Source of the DNA: Alphaproteobacteria bacterium
GTDB taxonomy: Bacteria > Pseudomonadota > Alphaproteobacteria > RF32 > CAG-239
NCBI GenBank assembly: GCA_017457005.1
Contig: JAFTII010000031.1
Location: 746-64,745, forward strand
Length of the DNA stretch: 64,000 bases
Reading direction: 5' to 3'
This document shows positions 2,413-29,529 of the stretch, piece by piece; position 1 is the first letter of the stretch; every line of letters starts with the position of its first letter. A program made the translations under genes and the position numbers. The notes under the pieces were generated by a model that was not told where the DNA came from, did no database searches, and saw only the letters and a program-made list of their open reading frames with translations.

Positions 2413-3135
2413 CTACTCCACCTTATTATAGGTCAATGAATATTTATCAACCGTGAATCCGACAGGATTTTTCAGCCTATCACCAAACTTAACTACTTTT
2501 CTCCGGTAACGAACACTTATAGCCGCCGTCCAATAATTAACTTCAGGCCGAACGGATTCAGGATACATATCTCTGGTTTCATACTCAACTTGCCAAATAC
2601 CATTGGCCAATTCATTAACCGAAAGTATCTTAACATCTCTGGTTAATCCGCGACTTTTAATAATATCAAGTGCTTTTTTAGCAGTATTGCGAACAAAATC
2701 ATCATAAATTCGCGGAGAAGACATTTCTTTAATCGGCCCGTCAGTACCCCAACGAGATTCCATTTCCGGAATATCGCGACTAAAAGTACTGCGCAACAAG
2801 ACATATTCCCGAACAAAGACCTCGGTTATCGCTTTTTGGCTCCGCAAACTTCCAACGATAGGGCGGATATGATAAACTTGCTCCGAACGATTTTGAAACG
2901 TCAGCAAAAACGGCTCCACACGATATAACGGCATTACCTGAAAAATAGCCAATATCAGAACTATATTGCAACATATACTAAGCGCTGTAATAATGGCAAA
3001 AGCACGTGCAGTCCACAAATAGCGTTTTTCTCCGGCATTTGCAACAAACAAATCCGAAGATGACGTATCAGGGCGCAAATTACCTCGCCCTTCTAAAAGC
3101 TTTTGTTTTCCATTCGTTCCGATTTGACTGACCAT
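2413..3135 (-). CDS. VirB8-family bitopic inner-membrane protein (T4SS), paralog 1
   Basis: 240 aa with a cytoplasmic N-terminus, one TM helix (FAIITALSICCNIVLILAIF) and a periplasmic domain ending in an NPxG motif (NPVGFTV), which is a VirB8 hallmark. Paralogous to 3442-4191 (shared VEPFLL, RNTF, RYWTA, NPxGFTV blocks). Confidence 0.6.
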   Translation of the reverse strand: MVSQIGTNGKQKLLEGRGNLRPDTSSSDLFVANAGEKRYLWTARAFAIITALSICCNIVLILAIFQVMPLYRVEPFLLTFQNRSEQVYHIRPIVGSLRSQKAITEVFVREYVLLRSTFSRDIPEMESRWGTDGPIKEMSSPRIYDDFVRNTAKKALDIIKSRGLTRDVKILSVNELANGIWQVEYETRDMYPESVRPEVNYWTAAISVRYRRKVVKFGDRLKNPVGFTVDKYSLTYNKVE

Positions 3136-3150
3136 ATACCGTTTCCTATG

Positions 3151-3339
3151 CTATATTGTTGCAACAAACCAGTCCGGAAGATTTTTAGGTAACTCAACCT
3201 CCATACAAGCACACGGAGAGAGTTTCAGCTCATTACTACCCCTACCAATACCAACCGGTTCCGGCTCATAATATGTACCAAAGCAACCGGACAATGCGAA
3301 TATAGCTATTAAAGCCAACAATTTGTAACTCATTCTCAT
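3151..3339 (-). CDS. Small lipoprotein (62 aa), VirB7-like by size and position
   Basis: Lipobox LSGC after a signal peptide. Lies between the two VirB8 paralogs, as rvhB7 does in Rickettsiales. Confidence 0.4.
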   Translation of the reverse strand: MRMSYKLLALIAIFALSGCFGTYYEPEPVGIGRGSNELKLSPCACMEVELPKNLPDWFVATI

Positions 3340-3441
3340 AATAAAATACTTTCTCTCAAGGTATCAATACTCTTATAGATATTATGAGGTTATACTCTTT
3401 TATTTTAAATGTCTAACAGCTTAATTATACTTATCAACAAA

Positions 3442-4191
3442 TTAGAAAATTTCTACTTCGGTTTGTGAGTATCTTACAACAGTAAAACCTAACGGATTAA
3501 GAAGTCTTCTAACCATAAACATTCGTTCTTTTATAAAATAAGCCGTAACTGACGCGGTCCAATAACGAACTCTTAATTCGGTCCTTTTTACTTCTGCATC
3601 GTAGTTGTTTACTAACTCATAAGTCTTAAAATCAACTTTCCAAATAGCACTTTTTTCTCCGCCTTGTTTCTTTAAACTGATTATTTCTACTTCTTTTGAA
3701 GTGGGGTCTTGAAACATATCTTGCCAACCGGCAGCAACTTTTTTGTAAAAAGCGTCGTAAACAGTAAATGCAGACAAATAATGGACAATTCCTCCGGGGA
3801 GCCAACGTGAGCGCATTTCCATCGCATCATTAATGAATGTATTGCGCAAAATAACATATTGACGAATAAAGGTTTCCATTAATTGCACTTTAGACGGCAT
3901 ATCAGATATAATCGGCTCGCTTCTGACAACCTCTGAAGAACTATCTTGGTTGATTATCAAAAAAGGCTCAACCGTTACCATCGGAGCTAAACGGAACAAT
4001 GCCAGAGATAAACTTATCAAAAACATTATGGAAACCGTAGCTGTCAAAACATAAAAACGAGACAACCACATATAGTATTTGTGTTTAAGGGTTTCCTTCT
4101 CTTTATCAAGTTTATTTAAAAACTCCGGAGCAGTTACGTTTCCAGTAATAACTTTTGTTTGAACGCCACTTTCTATTTGTTTATCTGCCAT
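3442..4191 (-). CDS. VirB8-family bitopic inner-membrane protein (T4SS), paralog 2
   Basis: 249 aa, single TM (VLTATVSIMFLISLSLALF), C-terminal NPLGFTVVRY (NPxG motif). Duplicated VirB8 is typical of Rickettsiales rvh systems. Confidence 0.6.
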   Translation of the reverse strand: MADKQIESGVQTKVITGNVTAPEFLNKLDKEKETLKHKYYMWLSRFYVLTATVSIMFLISLSLALFRLAPMVTVEPFLIINQDSSSEVVRSEPIISDMPSKVQLMETFIRQYVILRNTFINDAMEMRSRWLPGGIVHYLSAFTVYDAFYKKVAAGWQDMFQDPTSKEVEIISLKKQGGEKSAIWKVDFKTYELVNNYDAEVKRTELRVRYWTASVTAYFIKERMFMVRRLLNPLGFTVVRYSQTEVEIF

Positions 4192-4204: not shown

Positions 4205-7200
4205 TTAATAGTTAGAACAGTATGGAGCTTCTACAATTTCTGAACCGCTCACACTTTCCCATGCGTTTTCATGTGTATCTGCGGTATCTTTGTTGGCTTT
4301 TGCAGATTTGATACGCGCATCCAAATCTTCTTTACTGCCAACATCATCTCCGATATTTACCATTTCATTTTTGTCTTGCTTAAGTCGGGCAATAACATTT
4401 TTTAGAGTATCAACTCGCTCTTTTACCACTTTATTATCTGAGCTTATGTTTATATTTGCCTGCAAATTCTCTGCTGCAACAATAAGCTCAGACTTAATAT
4501 CATCCAAGCTTGAACGAATACCTTCATAGATCTCTTCATCTGACAGATCTACATCTTCAGGCTTTTTACCTTCTGCCAACTCATAACCGTAATTAGTCAT
4601 AATATCAAACAATTCCGTTATCTTTCCCTTATAACTTTCTTCGGTTTCTTCTTTTTGCTCTTTCATTGTATGTTCATTTTCTTTGTAGAACAAATAATTT
4701 CCTATTTGGTTTTTGGATAAAGGCGCCAACTCAACAGAAGCTAAATCTTTTTTATGATTTTTACTGTCCTTTTTGTTGTTTTCTTCAGCCCATAAAGTAT
4801 AAAAAGCATCATATACTTCATCTTTGAACATCAGCTTGCCGTCATCAACCGTCAGTAACACTCCTAATTCACTGTATTTGCAGTTAGATGTGGCTGTTTT
4901 TTCTCCAGTTCTGACATTAACATCCAAAGCACCATGATAGAGTTTGCTTTTTTTGATGGTGATACCTGCACATTTATACAAATTCTTATCATTACCGATA
5001 GTAGCATACTCTCCTTTATTGTTAATATCTACCGCCGTATCATAGCCTACCTTACATGGTAATGTACCCTGACGGAAAAATGTTTCTCGTTCACATCCGA
5101 TAGATAATATATCTTTTAATGATATTTTGGTCTCAACAAAGGCATAATCCCTCAAAAGATACTTCCAAACTTTTGGAAGCTCACCTCCGTAGTTCAAAAA
5201 ATCTTTTGCTTTTATCGGAGTATTTTTCTTGTTTCGGCGTTTTGTAATAGGCTTAACATTTTGAAAATCAGTGCTATCAAAATGTACAACTTCTCGCACA
5301 TTGGGCAAATGTTGCTCAAACATCGCCATCGGAGCTTTCATATCTCTGGACTTTGCAGGACTTCCGACAAAATAATCCTCTGATTCAGGAGCAGAATCTG
5401 ATCCGGCAACTTTAGCAAACATGGCAATATTATTTACCGCAGGTAATATACCGCCACTGATATTTATAACCAGTCCCCCGATTTCTGTCAGCATTTGCTG
5501 ATGGATATCAACTATTCTTGAATGATTCTTAGGATTATATAGAGCATCGCCCATATTTAAGATACGCTGCAAAGCCTTATCAATAATAGCATTCATCTGC
5601 GCATAAGAATCGCTTAATGCCGTATTGGCAACTTTTTCAAGTGATACATATACCAGTTCGGGAGTAAGCATCGGATTGGGATTTTCCTCCAAAGCCGTGG
5701 CTATGATAGCCAATAATCTGTTTTTTGATTGTTTTTTGGCACTGATTTCTGCGGCACTTAGAGTATCAGCAACTTTATCAAACAAAGCTTGTTTTTTATT
5801 ATTAATCTCTGTCATTGTTGCAGAATCGGCATCTTGCATATTTAACTTATATTCACGAATATCATCATCAATATTGTTTAATTTTTCATCCAATTGCGTA
5901 ATCTCGGCTCGTAAATTATCAGCTTTTTGATTTAAGTTCTCAACTCCCAACTCAGCCTTATTTGATTGTGATTGAGAGGTAAATTGAGAAGAAAGAGTTG
6001 CAGTTGAAGATACCCCTACAATAGGAGAACTTTGCGGAGTGGGAGCATCTATATCTGTTGGGAAAGGCTCTACATAATTAACATTATCAAGCATTGATTG
6101 TCCGGCATCTTCTTGTGCTTTATCTCTGGCTACAGACAACTCATTCAAGACATCTTTTAGTTCCGCATTTAGATTTTCAAGTTTTTGGGCAATGCCTTCA
6201 CGCTTGGCCATCAACTCTTGCAAGCCGCTATCTGTGGCCGATGAAGTAATTAACTCTTCCAGATCCGCCTCCAGTTGAGACATTAAATTTGCACGTTTTT
6301 TCTGATATGGTGTGTCAGACAAACCTATAGGGTTCCCTTCAAAATGACTTGCCATAACATTCAAAACATCGGCAATAGTAAAAGTTTTTAAATACTCTTT
6401 TATATTTTCATATTTTTTAGTCAAATATTGCTTATAAAAATTTTTTTCGTCATTCCAAACCAGTCTATCTGTACTTTTGGCATTGTTTCCCCATTTTGAA
6501 GGCTCTGCAGCCAGCATTTTAGATGCCTCTGCACCGACTTGCCAAGCAAGCATTTCTGCTCGCCGAGATTCTTCAACTTGCTTTTCTGAATTACTGGTAG
6601 TGTTTACATTTGCTTCTTCTTTACTCAGGATTTCATTTGCAACTTTATTATCAGAATCATAGACATCAGAATTTTCTGACGCGGTTTCATAATCAATATC
6701 CGGAGATTGAACATCTTCGGTATCGATTGAAGATGTTTCGGCAGCTTTTGCCGCTTCATGATATTGTATTGCCCAACCGAGTATTCCGCTTTCGCCATCT
6801 TCTCCAAAGCAAATATTTTTACATTCTTGCGCAGTAGGATTATTAAAATAACTGCAAATATAATTTGAAGTACATTGTTCAGATAATCGTAGTGCTTCTA
6901 TTGCGGCTTGATGACGAAGCCTTGTATCTCTGACACTTTCTGCAGCATGTTTATAAGCACTTAAGCCATTTATGAGGTTATGCACTTCTCTTGCACCACT
7001 GACTTTTTCTTCCAAAGGGGCTATCTTATTAAGCTCTTCCATTTGATCTTCTACACTTACGTAAGCATGTTCTGACGGAGAATCTTTGGCAACGACAAAT
7101 CCGATTACTCCATCCGGTATCTCTATTTCTTCGGTGTCATCCGCTTGTGCTGCAGCTTTTTCTTTTTCAGCGGCCAACTCTTCTTGCAAAGCCTCCTCCG

Positions 7201-8068
7201 TTGAAGTATCATCTTGTGAAACTTGGGCAAAAGATATTTCTTCTTGGTGAGAAATTACCGTAGCAAGTTCAAATTCATTATTTTTGTTCAAAAAGGCTTG
7301 TTTATCAGATGTTTTTACATAATTTAACGGCCTGATATCACGCAAAGATTTTACAGCAATATATTGTGCTTTAAGTGCGGTAACTTTTAATAGCAACTCA
7401 TATAATTGGTCAACAGCTTCAAATGCTTTACCAACAACAAATGCCGCATCATTACTGGCATCAGGAGAACCAATACCGCATGTGTTTGCATCTCCGGTAA
7501 TACAGGCAATGGTTTCATCAAGCTTGGGTCCTATATCATTGGCCATTTCTGTCTCTAGTTCTCTTATGGTCGTATATATTTCCAACAAATTATCTACATA
7601 AAAATTTTCACGGCGTGTATCATAAGATTGCATATCCACAATAGAATTAGACGGATAGCGAAGCAATAATAACTGAATTAAATCAAAAACATCTTCTGAA
7701 GAGGTATTTTTATATTCTTTTCCTAAATATACACAATTTTCTAATCCTCTCTCACCAGCAGTTTCTCCTCCGCCTTCGTTATTGCCGCCACCTCCGGACT
7801 TGCCTGCAAATGATATTATCTTATTAATATTACCGGAAAACATACTTTTCGTTGAAGCAAAAAGATTATTTGCATCAGAAATAACCTGATTACCAAAACT
7901 TTGGACTTGCGTTCCTAAATCCGTAATATTGGTAAAAATAGAGCCAACCTGATCCAAAGGGTCCATCATCGGACAGAAATCCATCGGAGGACAATACGGC
8001 ATTGCCTTTACTGCAGAACTAAAAAGCATTATTATAATTGCCGGTATTATAAGAAGATGTTTTTTCAT
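4205..8068 (-). CDS. Very large (about 1287 aa) secreted protein, acidic and coiled-coil rich with Cys-containing N- and C-terminal modules; unknown function, T4SS-operon encoded
   Basis: Start probably the ATG at 8068 (MKKHLLIIPAIIIMLFSSAVKA signal peptide), preceded by GGGGAGG and overlapping the upstream stop (TAATG). No TM helices beyond the signal peptide. Cys motifs include CPPMDFCPMM and CTSNYICSYFNNPTAQECKNIC. Confidence 0.55.
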   Translation of the reverse strand: MKKHLLIIPAIIIMLFSSAVKAMPYCPPMDFCPMMDPLDQVGSIFTNITDLGTQVQSFGNQVISDANNLFASTKSMFSGNINKIISFAGKSGGGGNNEGGGETAGERGLENCVYLGKEYKNTSSEDVFDLIQLLLLRYPSNSIVDMQSYDTRRENFYVDNLLEIYTTIRELETEMANDIGPKLDETIACITGDANTCGIGSPDASNDAAFVVGKAFEAVDQLYELLLKVTALKAQYIAVKSLRDIRPLNYVKTSDKQAFLNKNNEFELATVISHQEEISFAQVSQDDTSTEEALQEELAAEKEKAAAQADDTEEIEIPDGVIGFVVAKDSPSEHAYVSVEDQMEELNKIAPLEEKVSGAREVHNLINGLSAYKHAAESVRDTRLRHQAAIEALRLSEQCTSNYICSYFNNPTAQECKNICFGEDGESGILGWAIQYHEAAKAAETSSIDTEDVQSPDIDYETASENSDVYDSDNKVANEILSKEEANVNTTSNSEKQVEESRRAEMLAWQVGAEASKMLAAEPSKWGNNAKSTDRLVWNDEKNFYKQYLTKKYENIKEYLKTFTIADVLNVMASHFEGNPIGLSDTPYQKKRANLMSQLEADLEELITSSATDSGLQELMAKREGIAQKLENLNAELKDVLNELSVARDKAQEDAGQSMLDNVNYVEPFPTDIDAPTPQSSPIVGVSSTATLSSQFTSQSQSNKAELGVENLNQKADNLRAEITQLDEKLNNIDDDIREYKLNMQDADSATMTEINNKKQALFDKVADTLSAAEISAKKQSKNRLLAIIATALEENPNPMLTPELVYVSLEKVANTALSDSYAQMNAIIDKALQRILNMGDALYNPKNHSRIVDIHQQMLTEIGGLVINISGGILPAVNNIAMFAKVAGSDSAPESEDYFVGSPAKSRDMKAPMAMFEQHLPNVREVVHFDSTDFQNVKPITKRRNKKNTPIKAKDFLNYGGELPKVWKYLLRDYAFVETKISLKDILSIGCERETFFRQGTLPCKVGYDTAVDINNKGEYATIGNDKNLYKCAGITIKKSKLYHGALDVNVRTGEKTATSNCKYSELGVLLTVDDGKLMFKDEVYDAFYTLWAEENNKKDSKNHKKDLASVELAPLSKNQIGNYLFYKENEHTMKEQKEETEESYKGKITELFDIMTNYGYELAEGKKPEDVDLSDEEIYEGIRSSLDDIKSELIVAAENLQANINISSDNKVVKERVDTLKNVIARLKQDKNEMVNIGDDVGSKEDLDARIKSAKANKDTADTHENAWESVSGSEIVEAPYCSNY

Positions 8069-9315
8069 TATAACATACCTCCCCATCCACTGTCTTCATC
8101 GCTATCATCTGTAGAATCATTGTCGGTATTTGTAGTACCGGTTTCTGTTTCGTTATTACCGTTTTTTTTATTACTGTTGTAGCCCACTTTTTCCGGGTCA
8201 GCATAATCACACAAATTAAATTTACCAGTAACCTCTTTTAGAGCAATCCCATTAATATTGTTTACATCTTGGGCGGTTTGTGTTTTCAGATCCTCAATAA
8301 GGACATCTACCAAATTGCGTATTACTCTTATTTGATTGGCTAGCGTTTCTCCAAGCGCATTTGAAGCCTCCGACTCACCGGGATATGTTGCTGCAACATC
8401 GGCGTTTGCATCAATATTATCTTTATCTACAACCATGCTGTTGCGAAGTTTTGCCATTTTTACCAATGCCTGACCGGAACTTTCTTGCATTTGCTTAATT
8501 CTTGCTTTTTTAATCTGAAGTTCTTCTTTAATGGATACTGCGTGAGTTTTAGCAGATATTTTATCAAGAGTATCTTTTATTGCTTCATCTGCACTTTTCT
8601 TTACTTTAGAAAGTCCTTTGTCAGCAAGATCTTTAGCAATTGCGGCAGCTATGGCAGCCAGTTCGGTAGCAAGAGCTTTGACCTCTGTATCTAAAGCGGT
8701 AATTTTGCTCTTATGCTCTTCATTTAATGCAACCAATTTATTATTTTGCACTTCAACATCTTGGTTAAGTTGGTTTTCTATTTGTGTGATTTGGTTGTGT
8801 ATGCTTTCAACCCCTGCAGTATCACCTCTTGTTTCCAGTACACCGATATTTTTACGTAAAGATTCTATATCAGCATCAGCTTCGGTTTTTAAGATTTCTA
8901 TTTCTTCTTCTATAGCCTTAACATCAGCCTGATTTTGTTCCTGAGCTTTTGACTTTTGTACTTCTAATTTTGCTATTTTAGTTGAGATTATAGCTGATTG
9001 CCCGACCGGACTTTGGACTACATTTTGAACCTTACCATATATATTATTTATTTTCTCTTTCATTCCGCTAATAAAACCTTTAGCTTCTTTTGCCTTTTCA
9101 ATACCTTTTCCTACAAATTTTCCAAATTGAGAATTTTGAATACCATCTAAAATTTCTTCTGCTTTTGTTTTGATATTTTGAATAGCATTAGTAAGTTTAG
9201 ATGGAGTTTTGCCCAAATCAAATTTAACAAAAAATGCAGAAGCATCTGATGCCGAATATGTAATTGCTATAAATAAGACCAAACAGAAACTGATATATCT
9301 AAGGAGTTTGTTCAT
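8068..9315 (-). CDS. Secreted all-helical coiled-coil protein (about 415 aa); possible elongated VirB5-like or pilus-associated protein
   Basis: Likely start MNKLLRYISFCLVLFIAITYSASDASA (ATG at 9315 after GAGGAGG), overlapping the stop of the upstream gene. Long heptad-like helical sequence with an acidic C-terminal tail. Confidence 0.5.
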   Translation of the reverse strand: MNKLLRYISFCLVLFIAITYSASDASAFFVKFDLGKTPSKLTNAIQNIKTKAEEILDGIQNSQFGKFVGKGIEKAKEAKGFISGMKEKINNIYGKVQNVVQSPVGQSAIISTKIAKLEVQKSKAQEQNQADVKAIEEEIEILKTEADADIESLRKNIGVLETRGDTAGVESIHNQITQIENQLNQDVEVQNNKLVALNEEHKSKITALDTEVKALATELAAIAAAIAKDLADKGLSKVKKSADEAIKDTLDKISAKTHAVSIKEELQIKKARIKQMQESSGQALVKMAKLRNSMVVDKDNIDANADVAATYPGESEASNALGETLANQIRVIRNLVDVLIEDLKTQTAQDVNNINGIALKEVTGKFNLCDYADPEKVGYNSNKKNGNNETETGTTNTDNDSTDDSDEDSGWGGML

Positions 9316-9316
9316 A

Positions 9317-9871
9317 TTATTCGTCCTCCTCACTAATGGGGGCAAAACTGGTATTAAAGGCTCTGAGAGCTAAAAAACCTTTAAGATTAGCTATTTCCGC
9401 TTCTAAATTTGCAATTTGTTTTAGTCGTAAAGCAATGTTTTTGTTATAATCTTTAACTTCGTTTTGCAAAATAGAGGTATTGTCTTGCGATATAGATGAA
9501 AACTTTTGCAAAATTGATTTGGCACCCTCCATTATTGCACCGGCTTGTCCGGGGAGATTTACTCCATCTAGTATAGTAGTATCACTTTCCGGTGATGATG
9601 ATCCCATCATATTAGCTCTGGTAGAAATAGCATCTGCATATAATTGCGTTGCATATTGTCGCAACATTTCATTGCTTTTCTGCTCCCACGCTTCCGCATC
9701 TTCTGAACTTTTAACTATCGGAGTATTTTCTTTAACGATAATTTCAATATTACCAGAAATATCTTGCGGATCTTCTATATACGCAGGTATGTCTAAAGCC
9801 TTAGTTTCACTTATAAGGCTAAAGAACATAAGTATTACCAATAAATTTATAGGATAACAAATTTTTATCAT
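9317..9871 (-). CDS. Secreted 184-aa helical protein, T4SS operon member (VirB5-like size class)
   Basis: Signal peptide, then helical sequence ending in a coiled coil (LKQIANLEAEIANLKGFLALRA). Has a 4-nt ATGA overlap with the upstream gene. Confidence 0.45.
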   Translation of the reverse strand: MIKICYPINLLVILMFFSLISETKALDIPAYIEDPQDISGNIEIIVKENTPIVKSSEDAEAWEQKSNEMLRQYATQLYADAISTRANMMGSSSPESDTTILDGVNLPGQAGAIMEGAKSILQKFSSISQDNTSILQNEVKDYNKNIALRLKQIANLEAEIANLKGFLALRAFNTSFAPISEEDE

Positions 9872-10377
9872 GGCAATACTCCTTCAAGTGTCGGGGCTTG
9901 TAAACCCTCTACCTTGTCTTTAACGTTTTCTACATTTTCTTTAACATCTTCTACTTTGTCTTTAAAATCATCTACTTTATCTTTAATCTCTTGCCCTTTA
10001 TCTTTAACTTGATCCATAGAGCTTTTAACCGATGTCTTGAGCATATTTATTCTAGCCTGTTCCCTCTTTATAGTCTCCTCAAGTCTGGCTTTTAATCTTT
10101 TACGATGTTCGTCCATCTCTGCCTTACGCTCTTTGAAAGCTTGTAGTTTTTGTTTTATTTTGGCGCCTTTATTACCATCTCCTAATTTACCGACTTTGTT
10201 ACTGACAAATTGTTGAGCTTTTGTGGTGAATTGTTCATATTTTTCAGTAACATTTTTTAAGATGCCATTTGCGGTATCCAAAACGTTAACAATCCAATCC
10301 GTAGAGGCATAACAATTTTTGCCGCTGAACATCAGCAACATCGCTACTGCAACAAATATGGCCCCTTTCTTTAACAT
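9868..10377 (-). CDS. Secreted 169-aa coiled-coil protein carrying the same DKVEDVK heptad repeat as the 927-aa neighbour
   Basis: Signal peptide MLKKGAIFVAVAMLLMFSG. Contains repeats KDKVDDFKDKVEDVKENVENVKDKVE, encoded by 21-nt DNA tandem repeats. Confidence 0.5.
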   Translation of the reverse strand: MLKKGAIFVAVAMLLMFSGKNCYASTDWIVNVLDTANGILKNVTEKYEQFTTKAQQFVSNKVGKLGDGNKGAKIKQKLQAFKERKAEMDEHRKRLKARLEETIKREQARINMLKTSVKSSMDQVKDKGQEIKDKVDDFKDKVEDVKENVENVKDKVEGLQAPTLEGVLP

Positions 10378-10390
10378 TTATAGTCTCCGG

Positions 10391-13117
10391 TTAGATGTTA
10401 ACATTTTTCCGATTATTAATATCCGTAGAATAAAAATTATGTATTTCGGATATGTTAATCATACTTGATAATATCTCTATCAAACGTATAGAGTTTTTAG
10501 CTGTTTGAGCAGACAATTTAATTAATTCACTTTGAAGTTTATTGATATCAGATCCTTCCGCACCTTCAGATGATGCGGGGCTTCCGCTTGCGCCACCGAA
10601 TTTTGCAGTCAAAACATCTTTTTGAACATCCTCAAAGTCTCCGGCTTCAGATTTTAACTTAAATGCGGTTTCTAAGTAATGTTTATTAATTTCATGCAAA
10701 ATTTGATCTCTTACCAAAACAAAGCCATCTTCCTCTTTTAAATTTGCAAGATAGTTTTTACATTCTTCCAATTTTGCAGAATCTTGAGCTGTTTCACTGT
10801 CTAATCCGCAAACCAAAGCCATTGTCGGAGGAATAATAAAAGTATCATCCGATGATGTTCCGTTATCTTTACCTCTATTGCCGGAAATTTTAATTTTTTT
10901 CAGTTCTTCTTCGCTATAATTTCTAAAAACAAAATTTTGATAATTAAAAATATTTGTCATTGCCAACTGCGAACTATATATTTTCAGTAATGAATTTATT
11001 TGCATATCTATACCTTTAGCTAATTCTACAATATTAGCATAGGCATCACTTTTGTGGGAATCAGCCGCATACAAAACCGGTTCAACATGTTTTTCTTCAA
11101 AAGCATCAGCATCATTTATAAGTTTGAACGCATCTGCAATAACTGCCGCGGCATAACGTGCCAAAACATCCATATAGAATTTCGGCGCTTCCGAAATTGA
11201 ATCGGTTTGCGCTTTTAGTCGCTCCTCATTATATTTAACTAAACATGCATTTATGACACCTTTTTCCAGAGCATCATTTGAGCTAATATTTCCACAAGAC
11301 ATTCCCATATTTTGAGGGATAATAAACGTACCATTTACGTCTGTACCGCCATCAGGAAGGCTTAGCGCCATCGCAAAAGCCATATTATCTTGATGATGTA
11401 TATTTGCGGCAATTGTTATACTATCTTTTTCCAACATGGACTTTTGAAAAGGTTTTAACGATTGTTTCTTATCGTCAATGACCCCTTGCATTGTTTTAAT
11501 TGAAGAAAGTGTCTCATCTTTCATCGGAATTTCAGCACTGACATCTAAGTCTTTATCTATTGTTAGGACCTTTGGCGCTTCTTCTGTTGTTTCTGTGGTA
11601 TCTTCAGCTTCTGTTTCTTCAGAAGCTGAAGCTTCTTCCGTCTCACTATCCGGAGTTTGGAACGGACTACGCAAACCTGTGCTACCTTCTTCAACATCTG
11701 CCGGAAGAGGGACAGAAAAACCTAACTCGTCATCCGAGGTCTCATCTTCCGTGTCTTCTATTTCTTCTTCTGATTTGATATCTTCCGGTATTACAAGCTC
11801 ATTCGTTATTGGCGGTAATACTCCTAAGTTTGCATTTGGCATATTTAAAGTATTCATCGGAGCATTGCCATAAGGCATCGGTGTGTTTATGCTTCCGGTG
11901 GTAGAATTTCTAAACCCTCTGCGACTAGTTGGCACTCTGTTATTGTTGGTTGTTCTTGGTTTGTTAAGTGTAGTACCGGATGTATTTGTTGAAGTTTGGG
12001 GAGTGATTGAAGATGATGTATCTTCTGTGACGGTACTTTCTTCCGTTTCTTCAGAAGTAGGATCTTCTCCTTTCGTTTCACTATCCGGAGTTTGGAACGG
12101 ACTGCGTAAACCTATAGTCTTTCCTTCAACATCTGTTGGAAGAGGAACAGAAAAACCTAACTCATCATCAGCTGTATCATCTTCATCATCAGTATCTTCA
12201 TCATCCGGAAGAGGTGTCTCATTTATTGGCGGCAACATTTCTTCCCCCTCAACAATAGGCAAGCCTAAAGTGTTTGTCGGAGTATCACCATAAGGTAATG
12301 GTGTGCTTATTTCTCCGCCGGAAGGAGTTATGAAACTATTGCGACTGGGGGTTATGGGCTTAGAGCTACCGCTTGAGCCTGAATTGCTAGGCATCATGGG
12401 CGGAGTTGCTTCGGAGGTTTCCGGCGAAACCTCAGGAACAGTCGTTTGTGGGGTGGGTTCTAATACAGGTTCTTCTTCCTCGCCTAAGGCTCCTTTTGCC
12501 ATATCGGCGTAATCTTCAACCTTATCCTTAATATCTTTTGCTTGCTCTATATAGCCTTCAGCTTGAGATTTAACATCTTCTACCTTGTCTTTGATATCTT
12601 CTACTTTGTCTTTTACGTCTTCTACTTTATCTTTGACATTTTGTACAGTTGATTTAGCCTGCTCCACATAGCCTTCAGCTTGAGATTTTATGTCTTCTAC
12701 CTTATTTTTGACATCTTCTACTTTGTCTTTGACCTCATCAACCTTATCTTTAACATCTTGTACTTTTTCTTCTATTTGACTTTTATATTTATCAAATTCT
12801 TTTTTGTAGTTTTCAGCTTTTTCTTTATAGTCATTAACTTTTTTAATTGCGGCGTCTATCTTTTTCTTATTCTCTACGACATATTCTTGCACTGTTGCTT
12901 TTGCGGTTCCAATTGCAGCAGAAGTTTTTTGCACGGTTTTCATCGCGTTGATTACTGTTTGAGACTGCTGAATTTGGGTAAACCATTGCTTGATGGTTTT
13001 AATAAAGCTCATTGAATCCAAGGCAGGCAATTGAGCATAAGCACCAGAAGGAAAACTAATACACATAAAACCAGCTAAAAACATTCCGATGATGTATGTT
13101 TTTGTTTTATTTTTCAT
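10391..13117 (-). CDS. Secreted repeat protein (about 908 aa) with four parts: coiled-coil heptad repeats, a duplicated acidic Pro-rich block, a Ser/Thr/Pro-rich linker and a duplicated Cys-containing C-terminal module; unknown function
   Basis: Start ATG at 13117 (MKNKTKTYIIGMFLAGFMCISFPSGAYAQ) after GGGAGGGTGAA. Repeats VEDVKDKVEDIK; duplicated DDELGFSVPLPxDVE...GLRSPFQTPDSET; C-terminal duplicated FIIPQNMGMSCG / FIIPPTMALVCG modules. No TM helices. Confidence 0.55.
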   Translation of the reverse strand: MKNKTKTYIIGMFLAGFMCISFPSGAYAQLPALDSMSFIKTIKQWFTQIQQSQTVINAMKTVQKTSAAIGTAKATVQEYVVENKKKIDAAIKKVNDYKEKAENYKKEFDKYKSQIEEKVQDVKDKVDEVKDKVEDVKNKVEDIKSQAEGYVEQAKSTVQNVKDKVEDVKDKVEDIKDKVEDVKSQAEGYIEQAKDIKDKVEDYADMAKGALGEEEEPVLEPTPQTTVPEVSPETSEATPPMMPSNSGSSGSSKPITPSRNSFITPSGGEISTPLPYGDTPTNTLGLPIVEGEEMLPPINETPLPDDEDTDDEDDTADDELGFSVPLPTDVEGKTIGLRSPFQTPDSETKGEDPTSEETEESTVTEDTSSSITPQTSTNTSGTTLNKPRTTNNNRVPTSRRGFRNSTTGSINTPMPYGNAPMNTLNMPNANLGVLPPITNELVIPEDIKSEEEIEDTEDETSDDELGFSVPLPADVEEGSTGLRSPFQTPDSETEEASASEETEAEDTTETTEEAPKVLTIDKDLDVSAEIPMKDETLSSIKTMQGVIDDKKQSLKPFQKSMLEKDSITIAANIHHQDNMAFAMALSLPDGGTDVNGTFIIPQNMGMSCGNISSNDALEKGVINACLVKYNEERLKAQTDSISEAPKFYMDVLARYAAAVIADAFKLINDADAFEEKHVEPVLYAADSHKSDAYANIVELAKGIDMQINSLLKIYSSQLAMTNIFNYQNFVFRNYSEEELKKIKISGNRGKDNGTSSDDTFIIPPTMALVCGLDSETAQDSAKLEECKNYLANLKEEDGFVLVRDQILHEINKHYLETAFKLKSEAGDFEDVQKDVLTAKFGGASGSPASSEGAEGSDINKLQSELIKLSAQTAKNSIRLIEILSSMINISEIHNFYSTDINNRKNVNI

Positions 13118-13192
13118 TTCACCCTCCCGCAAGACTTGATAGTTTAGTATATCATAGTCCACTATTTTAACCAAGAAAATAACTTCATTTTG

Positions 13193-15622
13193 CTAAATAT
13201 TTAAATATTTTGTAACAAAGTTATCTTCTCCATATTCTTTAATAAGTTCTTCAACCAGCAAAACATTTTTGCGGCCGGAATTATACAAGCGCAAATAAGG
13301 TCCTAAGCCGCTCAAATCCACATCAAGTATTACTGACTCTCCGGTTGCCGGACGAGATAATAAAATAGCATAAGGAAAATCACGATAACTTTTACCGAAA
13401 ATAAAATCTATTTCTGAGCCAGTTAAATTCCAGTTTTCGTAGTCTTCTACCGTTGCCTGAGGATTACGGAAAAAGATAACGGTTTGACATTGTCCGCGAA
13501 TAACTTCTCCAACGCCCAAACGGTCAATAATATTCGGCTGCTGGAATGCACACAAATATGCCTGACGTTTTTTACGACCTTCTTGCAAACCAATTACAAA
13601 ATAATCTCTAAACATCGGGTGCTTAAGCATTGGAGCCGTTTCATCAATCATGATAAGCGACGGAACACCGGTTTCTCCGGTTTCTGATTGGATACGGTGC
13701 ATAATATAGCTGATAACAGCAGGAGCTAACGTTTCATCCTCAAAAATATGAGTAAAATCAAATGCCATAAACCGTTTTGCTTTAAGGTCCAAACTATCAG
13801 TATCGCCGTTAAAAATTTTTCCGTATTGATCAGGATTAACCCACTTAAACAACTCCCTACGCATATTACCGGTAGGCGAAAAACAACTTTTATATAAGTT
13901 TGTCATCAGGCGTTCACTGGGACGTAAATAATCAAAAGCGGTTGTAACCGCACGAGCTATTTCTTTCTCAGAAATGGCGTCATCAACTAATGTGATAGCT
14001 CGCATCCATCTTCTTAAAAAAGCGCGGTTATTAGCATTATTTTCACAGTCAAACGGATTAAGCGAAACATTTTTTTCATCGCCCTCAAAACCAATGTATG
14101 CGCCCCCGATAGAACGAGTAAATATTTCTGCACCGCGGTGTCTGTCAAAGAAGAATACCTTTAAGTCATGATGGCGCATGGCCTGACCTGCCAAAAAGGT
14201 AAGCAACGTTGTCTTACCTTGACCGGTAGGACCGATAATACAACAGTGGGCAACAGCAGAATCATCGCCGGAAACATGGAACTGAAACCGGTATGCTGAT
14301 CCTGATGTTGTACGAAATACTGTAATAGCTCCCTTACCCCAGTCACTTTTAGCGAATCCTTCTGACGGTTTATCAAAACAAATTGCTGCTGCTACTACGC
14401 GGGACAAATAACGATAGGTCCGAGGCAGTACTTCATAAGTCGGAAACTGATTAAAAAACGTGGCTTGAGCAACCCAACCTTCTCTAACCGGGGTAACACC
14501 GAATAATCGGCAAATTCGTTGAACTTCACTTTCGGCAAATTCAATATCATCTTTGGTATCGCCTTGTAAAAGTATTGCCATTGCATATTCGGTCAGTGAT
14601 TGGTGATTGGCATCGCTATCTTCTATTGCTCCCAAAACTTCACTATATTGGTTGATTACATCTGAAGAAAAACTGGTCATTAAAGCCATACGTTGTTGTT
14701 GCATAAGCAACGCACGAGCTTGCGGCTTGAATATCGGACGAATATTGTGCAACAATACCAGCTCACTATCTATAGAGAGCAAGGAAGTTATCATGCTTTC
14801 ATCCATATAATCTCCGGATGAACGAATCCCCATTGCTGCCGCATATTTTTCCTTATCGCCGCTAAAAAAGCGGATAAGACCGTTTTCTCCGGTAAAATGA
14901 ATATGATCAGATGTCAAAAGCTCATTAAGATGATAGCCTTCCGCACTACCGATTTTTGGTTGAGGGCGGGTTATCGGACTACATATTTTTGCGTAAACAG
15001 AAAGAGGACCATCTTCTGCAGGACTTCCTTCAGCTTCAAAAAGTGTGGTTACACCATAATCATTAAGAGTGGCTATCAATGATTGAGAGGCATAATTTAA
15101 ATCTTTGAGATTATCATCTCTATCCACTACCGAAAGAACTATATAGTGAGAATTACTATATACACGGCTAAGATTAGAACTCCATGTATTGTCAATGTTC
15201 TCCAACAAAGCATTGTCAAAGTCTTTTTTATTTTCTTCCAGTGCCACACGTTCACGCAAAGTTATAATTCGGCAAGTTATTTGTAAGTCAGACATTCCGT
15301 CAATCCATGCTTTTCGGGCTTCCATCATGGATATAACTTTTTCATCAGTGACAAAGGCCAAATCAACTCCCGTTACTTTAAAAACACGCGCTAACGAACC
15401 GTTATAGCAACGGATAGTCATGCCATCGGACAACAACTTATTAAAAGGCAAAAAGTCCGAAACACGAGACTCTCTGGGATGTGGCAACACATAGTGCCCA
15501 AACTTGGTTGCCCAAAAACCGGCAAATGCCGCAGCAGAGACGAATCCTATTGCAGCAACAATAACTTCTAACGAACTTAAGCCTTGCACGAAAGTGCTAA
15601 AAAAATCAAAATCAGGGTGCAA
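13193..15622 (-). CDS. virB4: VirB4/TrbE/CagE-family T4SS ATPase
   Basis: 809 aa with N-terminal hydrophobic segments. Walker A GPTGQGKTT, DEAW-like box IMIDETAPML, and C-terminal RKKRQAYLCAFQQPNIIDRL (the RKxN...TQS..D motif). Overlaps virB3 by 11 nt. Confidence 0.85.
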   Translation of the reverse strand: MHPDFDFFSTFVQGLSSLEVIVAAIGFVSAAAFAGFWATKFGHYVLPHPRESRVSDFLPFNKLLSDGMTIRCYNGSLARVFKVTGVDLAFVTDEKVISMMEARKAWIDGMSDLQITCRIITLRERVALEENKKDFDNALLENIDNTWSSNLSRVYSNSHYIVLSVVDRDDNLKDLNYASQSLIATLNDYGVTTLFEAEGSPAEDGPLSVYAKICSPITRPQPKIGSAEGYHLNELLTSDHIHFTGENGLIRFFSGDKEKYAAAMGIRSSGDYMDESMITSLLSIDSELVLLHNIRPIFKPQARALLMQQQRMALMTSFSSDVINQYSEVLGAIEDSDANHQSLTEYAMAILLQGDTKDDIEFAESEVQRICRLFGVTPVREGWVAQATFFNQFPTYEVLPRTYRYLSRVVAAAICFDKPSEGFAKSDWGKGAITVFRTTSGSAYRFQFHVSGDDSAVAHCCIIGPTGQGKTTLLTFLAGQAMRHHDLKVFFFDRHRGAEIFTRSIGGAYIGFEGDEKNVSLNPFDCENNANNRAFLRRWMRAITLVDDAISEKEIARAVTTAFDYLRPSERLMTNLYKSCFSPTGNMRRELFKWVNPDQYGKIFNGDTDSLDLKAKRFMAFDFTHIFEDETLAPAVISYIMHRIQSETGETGVPSLIMIDETAPMLKHPMFRDYFVIGLQEGRKKRQAYLCAFQQPNIIDRLGVGEVIRGQCQTVIFFRNPQATVEDYENWNLTGSEIDFIFGKSYRDFPYAILLSRPATGESVILDVDLSGLGPYLRLYNSGRKNVLLVEELIKEYGEDNFVTKYLNI

Positions 15623-16121: not shown

Positions 16122-18389
16122 TTAAAACAATACATTAACTAATCCGCCTAAAGTATTAAGCGCGTTATCAATTCCGTTCTTAATATTACCCATTGAATTG
16201 ATAGCTTTTTCAATACCGGCTTTGGTTTTGGTTGTTTCTTCACCATATTCGCCTTCAATGCCCCAAGTATTAGCTATCTGTTGATCTGCACTTGCTGTTC
16301 TATCCGCAATACCTTTAAGAGACTGCATTGCTTGATCTATATTAGAGCTAATCTGTCCTAATGAAGTCATCATAGCTTTGGGCTTGAGCGGATTTAAATT
16401 TTTGATTAATGACATAATGTTATTAACATTAGTAACAATACCTTCTCCAGCCGCCCCTATACCAACAGCGGTTTGTTTTACTGTGTTAATAGTATCTGTG
16501 GCATTTTTGATAACATTCATAATATCGTTTACGCAATCCATAATTTTACCACTCTTGCAGAAACCGCTTTTTTCATCAACCGGAACTTCTTCTTCCGGTA
16601 CTTCTTCTATATTAGGCAAGACTTCAGCCTTAGGCGGAGTTGGTTCATATATGGCGACAGGTTCAACGTATTCGTAATCGGCATCCGACAATACTTTTTT
16701 GATAGAATGTTTTTCCGTTTTATCGCCAAAAGAATCCAATGGTTTTGCAATAATTTCTTGCTTATCTTCAGCATTCGGATAAACCATATATTCTATCAGA
16801 CGTCCCATATTGGCGACCAAAAACAAACCGATAGAGATGTTAGCAAACCATTTCCAACTGATTTTATTAAAAACAGCAGCATAAGCAAACCCGACAAGAC
16901 CAAAGGCCGCCAGCAAATATGCTACAGGACGTAATCCGGCCAAAATTCTGGCTGCACGACGAGTAACAGAAGTAAAGACATCGTTATTTTTTGCATATAC
17001 AGTTTCATCAAGCTCTCCTTCTGATGCCATAAAATAATAGCCTTTTTCTTCATCGCTCAGCTTAGCAAATTCTGCGTCATACGCCTCTTTGGCAGCTTCA
17101 AGATCTTTATTAGCTTGATCAAGCCTATCTTTTAGTGTATCAGCCAAAGCGCAGAATTCTTCTCCGGTCATCATTGTGCCATCAGGGGTTCTATAGTATT
17201 TACTTTTATCCGCAGCTGCTTTACAGTTTGCAACAGCTTGGTCATACTGATTTTGCAGATTATTTACCTGAGAAGTCAGACTTTCATAATTACTTTTCTT
17301 TCCCTTCATATCTGCGGTCGGATTTTCCAGTAGAAAGGCATTTAGCTCTTCATCTGCCTTAAGTTTTTTGGCATAAGCTTCATCAGCTTTTGCTTTAAGC
17401 TCTGCTAATTTCTCTTTACTTTCTTCCATAGCAGCGCAAGCTTCTTTTTGTCCATGCGCACAAAGGAATGCAGCATCATAATAATCACTCTCGGTCTTTT
17501 GATAATCCTGCACAGCTTTGTTATAATCGTTATTTGCTTTGTCTGCGGCACTTTGTTTTTTTGCATATTCTTTAGCTATTTCTTCAGCACTTTTTTTTGG
17601 CTTATCAGAAGTTTCATCTTCATTAGAAGTGTCGGAATCTGAAGATCCTGATGATGTATCTTTAGGCTTTTCATCAGGATATTTGGAATAATAGTCATTT
17701 AGGCGATTTTGAGCCTCTTTGATATCATTTTCTGCCTTTGTCATTTTTTCTTTAGCATTTTCACACTTTTGCTTATCATAGCCACTACCGCTACATTTTT
17801 TAGCGATATTTTCTTTTGCTTTTTCCAAATCTTCTTGTGCGTTTTTTAAATCTTTTTCAGCATCTGCTTTAAAATCTTTAACATTATCAGCTGCCTTATT
17901 ATATGCTTTTTGCGCTTTATTTTTAGTGCTTTCTGCCTCTTTAAGAGCTTGTTTTAACTCATCTGTCTTATTGGCGGTCTCTAGATTTTTTCTTCCTGTT
18001 TCTGCAGCTTTATTTACCGCGTCAATCATAGCTTGCTTTTCTCCTTGAAGCTTAGCTAATTTTGCATGTTTCTCTGCACAACTTTCTTTACAGTTATCAA
18101 CTTCTTTTTGGGCATTTGCTATATCTTGATCATACTTCTGATTAGCCTTCGCCATTCCCTCTTGCTTAAATTTCTCAACCTGCTCATCTATGGCTTTTTC
18201 CACTTTATCCAAGGCCGCTTTTTTTTCATTATAATTTTGCTCTGCCTTGTCTAAGTCTGTTTTGGCAGAATTAAGTGCCGTTTCAACATCATCCATTGTC
18301 TCTTTTGCCGCCAAAGCACTTCCTGTAGGAACAGCAAGAAATACTAAAGCCAGTAATGTAATAAGGCTAAATGTTTTGATGTTTTTCAT
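16122..18389 (-). CDS. Fusion protein (about 755 aa): signal peptide, ~450-aa Lys/Glu-rich coiled coil, central VirB2-like two-helix pilin domain, ~220-aa C-terminal domain
   Basis: Start ATG at 18389 (MKNIKTFSLITLLALVFLAVPTGSALA) after AGGAGAA. Central segment LLAAFGLVGFAYAAVFNKISWKWFANISIGLFLVANMG matches the FGLVGVAFGAIFGKINWKWF motif of the two downstream VirB2-like genes. Confidence 0.5.
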   Translation of the reverse strand: MKNIKTFSLITLLALVFLAVPTGSALAAKETMDDVETALNSAKTDLDKAEQNYNEKKAALDKVEKAIDEQVEKFKQEGMAKANQKYDQDIANAQKEVDNCKESCAEKHAKLAKLQGEKQAMIDAVNKAAETGRKNLETANKTDELKQALKEAESTKNKAQKAYNKAADNVKDFKADAEKDLKNAQEDLEKAKENIAKKCSGSGYDKQKCENAKEKMTKAENDIKEAQNRLNDYYSKYPDEKPKDTSSGSSDSDTSNEDETSDKPKKSAEEIAKEYAKKQSAADKANNDYNKAVQDYQKTESDYYDAAFLCAHGQKEACAAMEESKEKLAELKAKADEAYAKKLKADEELNAFLLENPTADMKGKKSNYESLTSQVNNLQNQYDQAVANCKAAADKSKYYRTPDGTMMTGEEFCALADTLKDRLDQANKDLEAAKEAYDAEFAKLSDEEKGYYFMASEGELDETVYAKNNDVFTSVTRRAARILAGLRPVAYLLAAFGLVGFAYAAVFNKISWKWFANISIGLFLVANMGRLIEYMVYPNAEDKQEIIAKPLDSFGDKTEKHSIKKVLSDADYEYVEPVAIYEPTPPKAEVLPNIEEVPEEEVPVDEKSGFCKSGKIMDCVNDIMNVIKNATDTINTVKQTAVGIGAAGEGIVTNVNNIMSLIKNLNPLKPKAMMTSLGQISSNIDQAMQSLKGIADRTASADQQIANTWGIEGEYGEETTKTKAGIEKAINSMGNIKNGIDNALNTLGGLVNVLF

Positions 18390-18544
18390 CGCTGTTCTCC
18401 TGTAGTACAAGGCTCTATAAAATAGAGCATACGAATCCCTTTTGATTTATTATAACACATAAATTACTTATAAAGTGTTACAGTTTTTTGATTTTTTTGA
18501 AGGAATTTTCTAAAACTAAGGCAACTGAATTTATATTAGACTGC

Positions 18545-19306
18545 CTATTCTGCCGGTACTGCCGGTGTTTCTTGATCAACCGTAACACGCCTTGTTTCAC
18601 CCAGACCCGTTTCAAAAGTATCACCATAGAAAATTGTCGTTGTATCACCGGTAATATAAGTTACAATACCTCCGGCTGCCGCCAAAGCTGCCAACCCGAC
18701 AACAAGAGCTGCAAACCATTTCCAATTAATTTTGCCAAAGATAGCTCCAAAAGCCACACCAACAAGACCAAAACCGCCAACAATAAAGATAACAATCTTT
18801 AAATCTTTAAAAGTCTTAATTCCCTTATATAAAGCTAAGGTCAGAAGGGATGTTGTTGACTCTGCAAATGTTACAAAATTGGAACTGTCTGTATTCAGAG
18901 TATCTGTAATCATATTTTGGGTAAAGCCTTTGCAGCCGATAATCATATCAACAAGTTCTCCGGTACTGGCAATAACCACCAAAGAAATAACTATCGCTCC
19001 AAGCCACTTCCAGTTTAAGTTACCAAAGAATCCTCCGACAGCAACTCCGAGGATACCAAAGCCGGCAACAATATAGATTAAATCTCTAAGACCATTATAA
19101 ATTTTTATTCCGGTACCAACCAAACCCTCAAACAAGCCGCTTGAAGTGATACAACCGGTCATGGAAGTGTCTTGAGAGTTGCCTCCGGAATTTGTACCAC
19201 CGGATGCCGGTGGGGGAGTATCCTCAGCAAACACGGGGGCAACATAAGCACCAAAAGCAAAAGACAATGCGATAAGCATATATAGATATCTTAACCCTTT
19301 CATCAT
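18545..19306 (-). CDS. Tandem-duplicated VirB2/TrbC-like pilin (two pilin units in one polypeptide)
   Basis: Likely start MMKGLRY at 19306 after GGAGG. Signal peptide, then two repeats of the hydrophobic helix, K/N-x-NWKW(F/L) loop, hydrophobic helix pattern (GFGILGVAVGGFFGNLNWKWLGAIVISLVVIA and GGFGLVGVAFGAIFGKINWKWFAALVVGLAALA). Confidence 0.5.
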   Translation of the reverse strand: MMKGLRYLYMLIALSFAFGAYVAPVFAEDTPPPASGGTNSGGNSQDTSMTGCITSSGLFEGLVGTGIKIYNGLRDLIYIVAGFGILGVAVGGFFGNLNWKWLGAIVISLVVIASTGELVDMIIGCKGFTQNMITDTLNTDSSNFVTFAESTTSLLTLALYKGIKTFKDLKIVIFIVGGFGLVGVAFGAIFGKINWKWFAALVVGLAALAAAGGIVTYITGDTTTIFYGDTFETGLGETRRVTVDQETPAVPAE

Positions 19307-19434
19307 TGCCTCCGTATTATATGTTTGTGAAATTATGTTATTAAATTTCAACCAATTTTAATTGATTGAGGTTTAATAACACCAAATTAGAAAGTAATCC
19401 GGAGAGCCGGCAAGCTCTCCGGATCTTTATAATA

Positions 19435-21690: not shown

Positions 21691-21731
21691 TAAGTCTTTG
21701 GAGAAGCTTGATTATTTAAAATTCAGTATGT

Positions 21732-24048: not shown

Positions 24049-24067
24049 AAGCAAAAGGAGAACCCCT

Positions 24068-26684: not shown

Positions 26685-26691
26685 ATAAACA

Positions 26692-28383: not shown

Positions 28384-28393
28384 GAGATAAAAA

Positions 28394-29527: not shown

Positions 29528-29529
29528 AA

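Follow-up and report, generated by a model that had tools for sequence, protein, structure and literature searches.

Repeat-variable orphan proteins with predicted signal peptides in a type IV secretion operon of uncultured gut Alphaproteobacteria

The window analyzed here, a stretch of 64,000 nucleotides (nt) from an uncultured alphaproteobacterium (assembly GCA_017457005.1, contig JAFTII010000031.1), carries on its minus strand an operon for a divergent type IV secretion system (T4SS), in which five orphan genes, designated p908, p169, p184, p415 and p1287, directly follow the gene for VirB4, confirming the operon placement that an earlier note on this DNA had proposed. Based on Pfam and NCBIfam searches, the operon order is three VirB2-like genes, VirB3, VirB4, the five orphans, VirB8, a VirB7-like lipoprotein, a second VirB8 and VirB9, with genes that are tightly packed or overlapping. 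The genes of primary concern are the following, with positions being those of the window:

13193-15622, minus strand: VirB4 ATPase, directly upstream of p908 (TIGR00929, E 1e-115)
10391-13117, minus strand: p908, the first gene after VirB4, taken from the list of open reading frames (ORFs) and from 908-residue gene calls on identical contigs
9868-10377, minus strand: p169, predicted secreted coiled-coil protein of 169 residues, with a signal peptide at residues 1-24, then STDWIVNVLDTANG
9317-9871, minus strand: p184, predicted secreted protein of 184 residues without a heptad array, with the conserved N-terminus LDIPAYIEDPQD
8068-9315, minus strand: p415, predicted secreted helical protein of 415 residues without a heptad array, with an N-terminus homologous to that of p908
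4205-8068, minus strand: p1287, predicted secreted orphan of 1287 residues, the last gene of the variable block and part of the same operon

The first four orphans (p908, p169, p184 and p415) form four close-packed ORFs in the minus-strand interval 8068-13174. The longest ORF for p908 comprises 927 residues and starts from a TTG 19 codons upstream, while the 908-residue gene begins 75 nt past the VirB4 stop codon, a position which is shared by its orthologues, here termed gene 1, in 75 of the 75 loci with sequence downstream of VirB4. The proteins had been described as secreted, and all five orphans indeed carry N-terminal Sec-type signal peptides when read by eye, while a Kyte-Doolittle scan (threshold 1.6, at which the signal peptide of p908 went unflagged) found no transmembrane segment besides the signal peptide in any of the five.

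The D-K-V-E-D-V-K heptads reported in the 908- and 169-residue proteins were found in both, in the form [DN]K-V-E/D-D/E-V/I-K, and the 21-nt tandem units claimed for both genes were recovered by Tandem Repeats Finder as three period-21 arrays. Together with two longer repeats of p908, these arrays are arranged as follows:

12686-12766, minus strand: p908 array A, residues 118-144 (Tandem Repeats Finder span 12693-12771, 3.8 copies), with units KVQDVKD KVDEVKD KVEDVKN KVEDIK
12569-12646, minus strand: p908 array B, residues 158-183 (Tandem Repeats Finder, period 21, 3.7 copies), with units VQNVKDK VEDVKDK VEDIKDK VEDVK
9908-10008, minus strand: heptad array of p169 (Tandem Repeats Finder, period 21, 4.8 copies), with units QEIKDKV DDFKDKV EDVKENV ENVKDKV
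12536-12763, minus strand: 117-nt (39-residue) higher-order repeat of p908 (Tandem Repeats Finder, 1.9 copies, 84% matches)
11483-12352, minus strand: ~435-nt (~145-residue) tandem duplication in the Pro/Ser/Thr/acidic linker of p908, which the earlier note had overlooked

A degenerate pattern, GAYAARGTNGARGAYRTNAAR, which is the back-translation of D-K-V-E-D-[VI]-K, was searched with up to two mismatches and matched nine times, compared to 0.07 matches expected from shuffles, and all of these matches are on the minus strand and within p908 and p169. The heptad repeats are therefore real and beyond chance. Within DKVEDVK, Val at position 3 and Val or Ile at position 6 provide the 3-4 spacing of a coiled coil, and the canonical heptad pattern with hydrophobic a and d positions is present in eight units of p908 and four to five units of p169. 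The notion of a heptad-sharing family across 8068-13117 applies to these two of the four proteins encoded there, but not to p184 and p415. Recent gene conversion between the arrays of p908 and p169 was considered but is unsupported, since their DNA identity is only 61-75%, which is as much as the same peptide and the same codon bias predict.

The ~140-nt duplication that had been proposed for p908 has a true period of 117 nt, with a unit that consists of four heptads followed by SQAEGY[VI]EQAK and with 30 of the 39 residues identical between copies. The 32-mer quoted as duplicated has a single exact occurrence (12656-12687), while its partner, 117 nt upstream, matches it exactly only in a 21-nt core (12551-12571 and 12668-12688). 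The copies of the ~435-nt duplication share ~45% protein identity, with a 118-nt stretch that is 83% identical between 11632-11749 and 12067-12184, and the core of this duplication reads DELGFSVPLP.DVE...GLRSPFQTPDSET (residues 318-348 and 463-493).

Length variation, which the earlier note had expected of such repeats, was indeed observed: copy number is not invariant, as near-identical strains show in-frame copy-number differences, and none of the proteins matched a known cytoplasmic family. The alleles concerned were taken from short-read metagenome assemblies, some of which are small-k Logan assemblies, and several alleles have two to four members from independent assemblies. For example, the p908 allele P0003 lacks exactly one heptad, in array B, while one 144-residue copy of the middle duplication is missing from L002, P0002, P0003 and P0004. 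This loss is seen with two different junctions, i.e., ‘...DSETKGEDPT/SEETE...’ and ‘...DSET/EEASASE...’ (junction marked by a slash), and implies two or more independent recombination events. In a sister species, near-identical p169 orthologues carry two (P0014), three (P0012), four (P0013) or five (P0009) DKVEDVK units; a fifth relative carries more than eight KDK[IV][ND]E[AV]K units, and alleles of 564, 568 and 570 residues from another species differ in an acidic DYDSDY repeat and in the linker. All indels that were seen are multiples of three and lie at repeat-unit boundaries, and in-frame copy-number polymorphism is demonstrated.

On a wider scale, the variable block of ~70 species was found to contain 146 tandem arrays, with a period that is divisible by three in 138 cases, equal to 21 in 72 and equal to 42 in 15, and with a density of 0.24 per kb compared to 0.13 per kb outside the block. 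The DKVEDVK array itself is lineage-specific, being present in the p169 orthologues of some species, while analogous arrays, of KDKVDEVK units, occur in a small number of gene-1 orthologues. In the window, p169 represents a shortened form, as its orthologues elsewhere are 330-450 residues long.

The architecture of p908, derived from alignments of 67-76 orthologues, runs from a signal peptide (residues 1-28) through a conserved N-terminus, the coiled coil and a linker of low complexity to two C-terminal modules that contain Cys residues; the conserved parts are located as follows:

12893-13033, minus strand: conserved mature N-terminus of p908, residues 29-~75, QLPALDSMSFIKTIKQW...AAIGTAK (orthologue alignments)
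10898-11383, minus strand: C-terminal module 1, residues 579-~740, helical and conserved, with C608 and C625 invariant
10394-10867, minus strand: C-terminal module 2, residues 751-908, with C770 and C786

Within the N-terminal segment of ~45 residues, G70 is invariant and the conservation of D34 amounts to at least 90%. Gene 1 varies in length from 308 to 908 residues across species, with an N-terminal part of 61-84 residues, a middle region of 92-532 residues (511 in the window) and a C-terminal module of 149-166 residues, or ~330 residues if the second module is fused. The window and five other species show such a fusion of module 2 to gene 1, while the module is a separate gene of ~200 residues in most others. 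The linker is of low complexity, and its repeats are species-specific. When 1.84 billion representative proteins were searched exhaustively with phmmer, the C-terminal region matched only 63 clusters, all of which are of gene-1 or gene-2 size. The ends of p908 are thus fixed, as are its head modules, while the stalk and linker are variable.

The sequence of the window matches a metagenome scaffold in ENA at 100% identity. In a VirB4 scan with one genome per species, 80 species of uncultured gut Alphaproteobacteria were found to carry the locus. Nearly all of them are labelled as uncultured (Alpha)proteobacteria, e.g., ‘Proteobacteria bacterium CAG:495’ and ‘uncultured Azospirillum sp. UMGS63’, and the sources include Hadza, Nepal, roe-deer and rumen metagenome-assembled genomes. 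Two contigs, L075 and L082, whose VirB4 is 75-76% identical, were deposited under Lachnospiraceae and Bacteroidaceae bin names and are probably mis-binned. A neighboring secretin/TcpQ cluster is syntenic in ~48 of the 63 loci with full flanks, from which it follows that the T4SS lies on the chromosome and is inherited vertically in this clade. Within the library that was searched, no paper on a T4SS of this lineage was found.

Identity among the 80 species amounts to 73-94% for VirB4 and 47-87% for VirB8, while the genes between VirB4 and VirB8, of which there are three to six per locus, are ~20-57% identical to those of the window. The same tendency is apparent between the window and L002, a strain pair that is 98.7% identical, where VirB4 shows 25 synonymous and no non-synonymous changes, while the gene-wide ratio of non-synonymous to synonymous substitution rates (dN/dS) amounts to 0.24 for p908, 0.36 for p169, 0.40 for p415 and 0.30 for p1287. 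The orphans evolve much faster than the T4SS core; gene-wide positive selection was considered and is unsupported by these values, which correspond to fast or relaxed evolution.

With respect to the relatedness of the orphans, hhalign comparisons of their N-termini returned 90-98%, and the five might on this basis be taken as one family. These scores are driven by the signal peptides and were rejected, because trimming the signal peptides left only the p908-p415 pair high, at 86.8% over 67 columns, compared to 19.8% for p908 and p169 and at most 26% for the remaining pairs. The proposed family accordingly stands as an N-terminal homology between p908 and p415, but not between p908 and p169, which had been grouped by their heptads.

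The other two orphans have conservation patterns of their own. The mature N-terminus of the p184 family is strongly conserved ([FL][DE]IP[SA]YI.DPQD[VI]..NI..I[IV]), as is its C-terminal helix (L.QI..LEA.I.NL). The p1287 protein is encoded in nearly every related locus, with lengths of 1210-1654 residues, a conserved C-terminal PYC..Y and ~20 invariant residues, e.g., H363, N364, W538, D540, H856, D909, R925, D931, E1067, E1132 and D1232. Nothing in Pfam, NCBIfam or the PDB was found to match p1287 except for its central coiled coil, and the pattern of its conserved residues recalls either an enzyme or a structural protein whose packing is precise.

The orphans occupy the position at which VirB5 and VirB6 would be expected, and the suggestion that they stand in place of these two proteins is borne out as far as gene position is concerned. 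It does not hold for VirB6, as none of the five is polytopic and hence none is a VirB6; VirB6/TrbL (PF04610) has no match among the five orphans, and no candidate was found in the T4SS part of the window, beyond which the operon extends. The start of p908 is VirB5-like, in that AYA at the end of the signal peptide is directly followed by QLPALD, and 62 of 76 gene-1 orthologues carry a P-x(1,2)-D motif. Annotated VirB5 proteins from four plasmids start with QIPVTD (Xanthomonas), QGIPVID (Rhizobium), GIPVAID (IncX4) and QFVVSD (Agrobacterium), while the 273-residue product of the gene that follows VirB4 in Microvirga, described below, starts with QVPVLD. With its signal peptide kept, p908 aligned to a VirB5 profile of only five sequences at 86% (hhalign, E 4.7e-6, 42 columns). 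These data characterize p908 as a protein in the VirB5 position with a VirB5-like start, its identity as VirB5 being undemonstrated. Its 908 residues depart from the size of the TraC fold (~220 residues, a bundle of three helices plus a globular appendage), and p184 is an alternative VirB5 candidate on account of its size alone, but gave no signal either.

Searches for known domains returned little. Profile searches of the PDB with alignments of the p908 N-terminus, the p908 C-terminus, p415 and p1287 yielded coiled-coil noise or nothing, and no toxin or enzyme domain was detected in the orphans by Pfam, NCBIfam and PDB profile scans, nor did the Pfam and NCBIfam scans reveal a YadA-type beta-barrel anchor as found in trimeric autotransporter adhesins. 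Matches to SMC, Rad50, apolipoprotein and YtxH in Pfam and NCBIfam were rejected as sub-threshold, compositional coiled-coil matches; the YtxH-like match (PF12732), for instance, reached 31.9 bits compared to a cut-off of 37.5, covered the KDK-rich heptads only and was taken as compositional. AlphaFold2 modeling of full-length p908 placed a continuous helix at residues 73-208, with the best predicted local distance difference test (pLDDT) values, 60-70, on the heptad region, and the C-terminus was predicted to be helical in a separate model of that part.

The remainder of the T4SS operon, and the region around it, include the following features:

16122-19854, minus strand: three VirB2/TrbC-like genes, encoding 139, 252 and 755 residues (Pfam/NCBIfam)
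2413-4191, minus strand: VirB8 paralogues of 249 and 240 residues, flanking a lipoprotein
3151-3339, minus strand: the 62-residue lipoprotein, with an ALSGC lipobox
20152-30144, plus strand: divergently transcribed cluster resembling a type IV pilus or type II secretion system, with genes for a secretin, a TcpQ-like protein and others

All three VirB2-like genes were found in 54-61 of 63 related loci. The 139-residue product is an ordinary pilin, whose gene is followed by a strong hairpin terminator (19396-19425), the 252-residue product has two pilin domains, and the 755-residue product consists of a Lys/Glu/Ala-rich coiled coil of ~450 residues, a pilin domain and a 200-residue tail. The VirB3-like gene encodes 96 residues, while VirB9/CagX ends the part of the operon that lies within the window. 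On an identical public contig that continues beyond the window, a 1216-residue beta-flower/RHS-repeat protein is followed by a 1493-residue VirB10 (together L088:12348-20536) and by VirB11. The 1216-residue protein is rich in beta-flower, DUF3659 and RHS repeats, and the same beta-flower repeats precede the TrbI domain of the 1493-residue VirB10. In otherwise identical assemblies, the 1216-residue gene is called differently, i.e., as 1216 residues or as 707 or 619 residues plus gaps, which suggests another repeat-variable or hard-to-assemble gene.

The nearest plasmid T4SS was found on pMVF16-3 of Microvirga sp. VF16, whose VirB4 is 39% identical, while other plasmid systems are below ~30%. 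Its corresponding slot (L089:16351-19558) is compact and encodes the above-mentioned VirB5-like protein of 273 residues, a 228-residue protein with three transmembrane segments, a 428-residue secreted protein and a 58-residue lipoprotein, all of which carry the annotation hypothetical. Genes for VirD4 and a MobA/MobL relaxase lie close by, and a conjugative form of this T4SS lineage therefore exists. No homology to p1287 was found for the 428-residue protein, and likewise none between the 273-residue protein and the head domain of p908. The 58-residue lipoprotein is a homologue of the 62-residue lipoprotein of the window, with which it shares the core P[VI]GIGR..N[ED]LK.SPCAC, and the latter probably represents VirB7 in this T4SS lineage.

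The interpretation favored here, with slightly better than even confidence, is that the interval encodes Sec-exported accessory parts of a clade-specific chromosomal T4SS, which are repeat-variable and putatively stalk- or adhesin-like. The orphans lie between virB4 and virB7/virB8, a position that canonical systems use for the pilus-tip protein VirB5 and the channel protein VirB6. The N-terminal segment of p908, with its ‘P-x-x-D’ start, may dock onto the machine or pilus as in VirB5, while the heptads would form a valine-zipper coiled-coil stalk, possibly a parallel one. Beta-branched residues at both a and d favor higher-order oligomers, e.g., trimers. The disordered Pro/Ser/Thr/acidic spacer would extend p908 further, and one or two disulfide-stabilised helical head modules may constitute the binding end that contacts a host or neighboring cell, with p169 as a putative short coiled-coil partner carrying the same heptad. 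Slippage and unequal recombination of the 21-, 117- and 435-nt in-frame units could add or remove whole heptads or modules, and such changes would alter the reach and the epitopes of the exposed part, while the reading frame and the conserved ends are kept. The proteins would assemble with the T4SS, lie outside the cell or at its surface and act in an adhesin- or ruler-like way; surface exposure, adhesion and antigenic variation, all raised in the earlier note, are inferred by analogy. A bolder version, in which the orphans jointly replace the VirB5 tip and possibly a VirB6-supported stalk by an extracellular appendage that is new and far larger, with p908 as a giant, repeat-tuned tip adhesin derived from VirB5, is considered rather unlikely.

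Several results weigh against the favored interpretation. The AlphaFold2 model of full-length p908, based on 27 sequences, has a mean pLDDT of only 36.5, i.e., low confidence, and that of its C-terminal 379 residues reaches 49.4; the depth of the alignment used for prediction was limited, because low-complexity words saturated the word-index homology searches, which recovered few orthologues. Foldseek found no match for the low-confidence C-terminal model in the PDB (best E 0.42), and a fold can therefore not be assigned. When signal peptides were trimmed, the alignment of p908 to the five-sequence VirB5 profile fell to 20% over 25 columns. No match of p908 to PF07996 or to an NCBIfam VirB5 family was obtained at E <=0.01, and PF07996 appears sub-threshold in 17 of 76 orthologue N-termini (best E 0.0027), amid 596 mostly coiled-coil families. 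The exact DKVEDVK heptad is non-essential, since gene 1 of most other species is without the array. Gene-wide dN/dS below 1 leaves diversifying selection unsupported, and the copy-number alleles stem from short-read assemblies, with 21-nt units that are nearly perfect repeats in the sister species.

This last point bears on the explanation that the copy-number differences are short-read assembly artefacts, which is highly improbable. All alleles do come from metagenome assemblies, including the small-k ones, and the 21-nt units of the sister species are almost identical in DNA; on the other hand, the arrays of the window differ at synonymous sites, the arrays do not exceed ~105 nt and are thus below the read length or a k-mer of k=141, and copies of the 435-nt duplication that are only ~45% identical in protein should not collapse. 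The two distinct, clean in-frame junctions and the recurrence of several alleles in two to four sequences from independent assemblies further argue against an artefact. It is likewise improbable, if less so, that the proteins are toxins or effectors secreted in two steps, by Sec to the periplasm and then by T4SS release, as is the case for pertussis toxin and Ptl. Sec signals and genes inside a T4SS operon would suit such substrates, and the top Foldseek matches, which are non-significant and were obtained with the low-confidence model, are to the alpha-pore-forming toxins AhlC, Hbl-B and ClyA. Those matches, however, have E values of at least 0.42 and TM scores of at most 0.2, toxin and enzyme domains went undetected in the scans described above, and in 80 species the gene order is fixed and each locus has a single orthologue of each protein, a pattern closer to apparatus genes than to a variable set of effectors. 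Of the two roles that the earlier note had offered, i.e., apparatus components or co-secreted substrates, the latter is less well supported, since substrates of the classical kind are cytoplasmic proteins that are recruited by the coupling protein and have no Sec signal, while all five orphans carry one.

The same Sec signals, which deliver only to the periplasm, are compatible with a third explanation, namely that the orphans are periplasmic scaffold or spacer struts, built from coiled coils and arranged around the stalk or arches of an enlarged T4SS, with no host- or target-facing role and with copy number changing by neutral slippage that low-complexity coiled coils and linkers tolerate. 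The system is indeed enlarged elsewhere, as evident from its 1493-residue VirB10 and from the coiled-coil extension of its 755-residue VirB2-like protein, and a dN/dS of 0.24-0.40, rather than above 1, as well as tandem arrays that also occur beyond the block, if only about half as densely, would be expected of such struts. A middle region that ranges from 92 to 532 residues, however, poorly fits a strut of fixed dimension, while long Pro/Ser/Thr-rich and acidic disordered linkers and disulfide-bonded terminal modules would be more typical of exposed proteins. A scaffold is considered plausible but somewhat unlikely, and the reading of the orphans as exported, repeat-variable accessory parts of the T4SS is retained.

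Comparison with known systems places this reading in context. With VirB5/TraC/TrwJ/TrbJ, p908 shares the gene position directly after virB4, a Sec signal, a start of the form hydrophobic-P-x-x-D, a long helix and, putatively, a role at the distal, target-contacting end; VirB5 has been implicated in the recognition of host cells (PMC2653234). The differences are that p908 is four times larger (908 versus ~220 residues) and has a heptad stalk inserted, along with a disordered linker (~330 residues) and novel Cys-containing modules. In CagY, the VirB10 orthologue of Helicobacter pylori, direct-repeat recombination generates variants that are always in-frame in an alpha-helical, surface-exposed middle region (PMC2194252, PMC2581425, PMC3585145), which resembles the in-frame gain and loss of heptads and of the 144-residue module between strains reported here, although a different protein is affected, VirB10 being encoded by the separate 1493-residue gene, and the arrays are far smaller, with two to five units. 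In the Trw system of Bartonella, amplified trwL/VirB2 and trwJ/VirB5 variants mediate host-specific adhesion to erythrocytes, while the core is conserved (PMC2883598, PMC3406051). That system is also alphaproteobacterial and host-associated, and is mirrored here by three VirB2-like genes and at least two proteins with a gene-1-type N-terminus, but the present locus features intragenic repeats and domain accretion rather than tandem gene copies, and belongs to an uncultured bacterium of gut commensal type.

The rvh T4SS of Rickettsiales has a duplicated VirB8 and no recognisable VirB5 (PMC2653234). These traits, together with a chromosomal location and vertical inheritance, are common to the present system, whereas several large polytopic VirB6 paralogues follow virB4 in rvh and, in the present system, the gene is followed by five proteins whose only hydrophobic segment is the signal peptide. 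Among surface proteins, streptococcal M-like proteins and the stalks of trimeric autotransporters combine a repeat-encoded heptad stalk and strain length polymorphism with conserved ends. In contrast to these, p908 is without a cell-wall anchor or beta-barrel detected by Pfam or NCBIfam, and its gene lies inside a secretion operon. A repeat-variable, exposed T4SS component would thus be of a kind that is already known, while the orphan protein family and its occurrence in an uncultured gut clade would be new.

The locus shows how a gene in the VirB5 position can grow by repeat and domain accretion, and the orphan head-module family, with its 63 clusters, represents a candidate new binding fold. 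If the reading proposed here is true, the repeat alleles would serve as strain markers, and stalk length and head type could be linked to host or target. Should these proteins form the part of the apparatus that faces outward, they would determine the specificity of a T4SS which belongs to the core of a widespread uncultured gut lineage, represented in human, ruminant and deer samples, and if p908 were indeed a giant tip adhesin, the whole clade would possess a strain-variable device for contact with host or neighboring cells.

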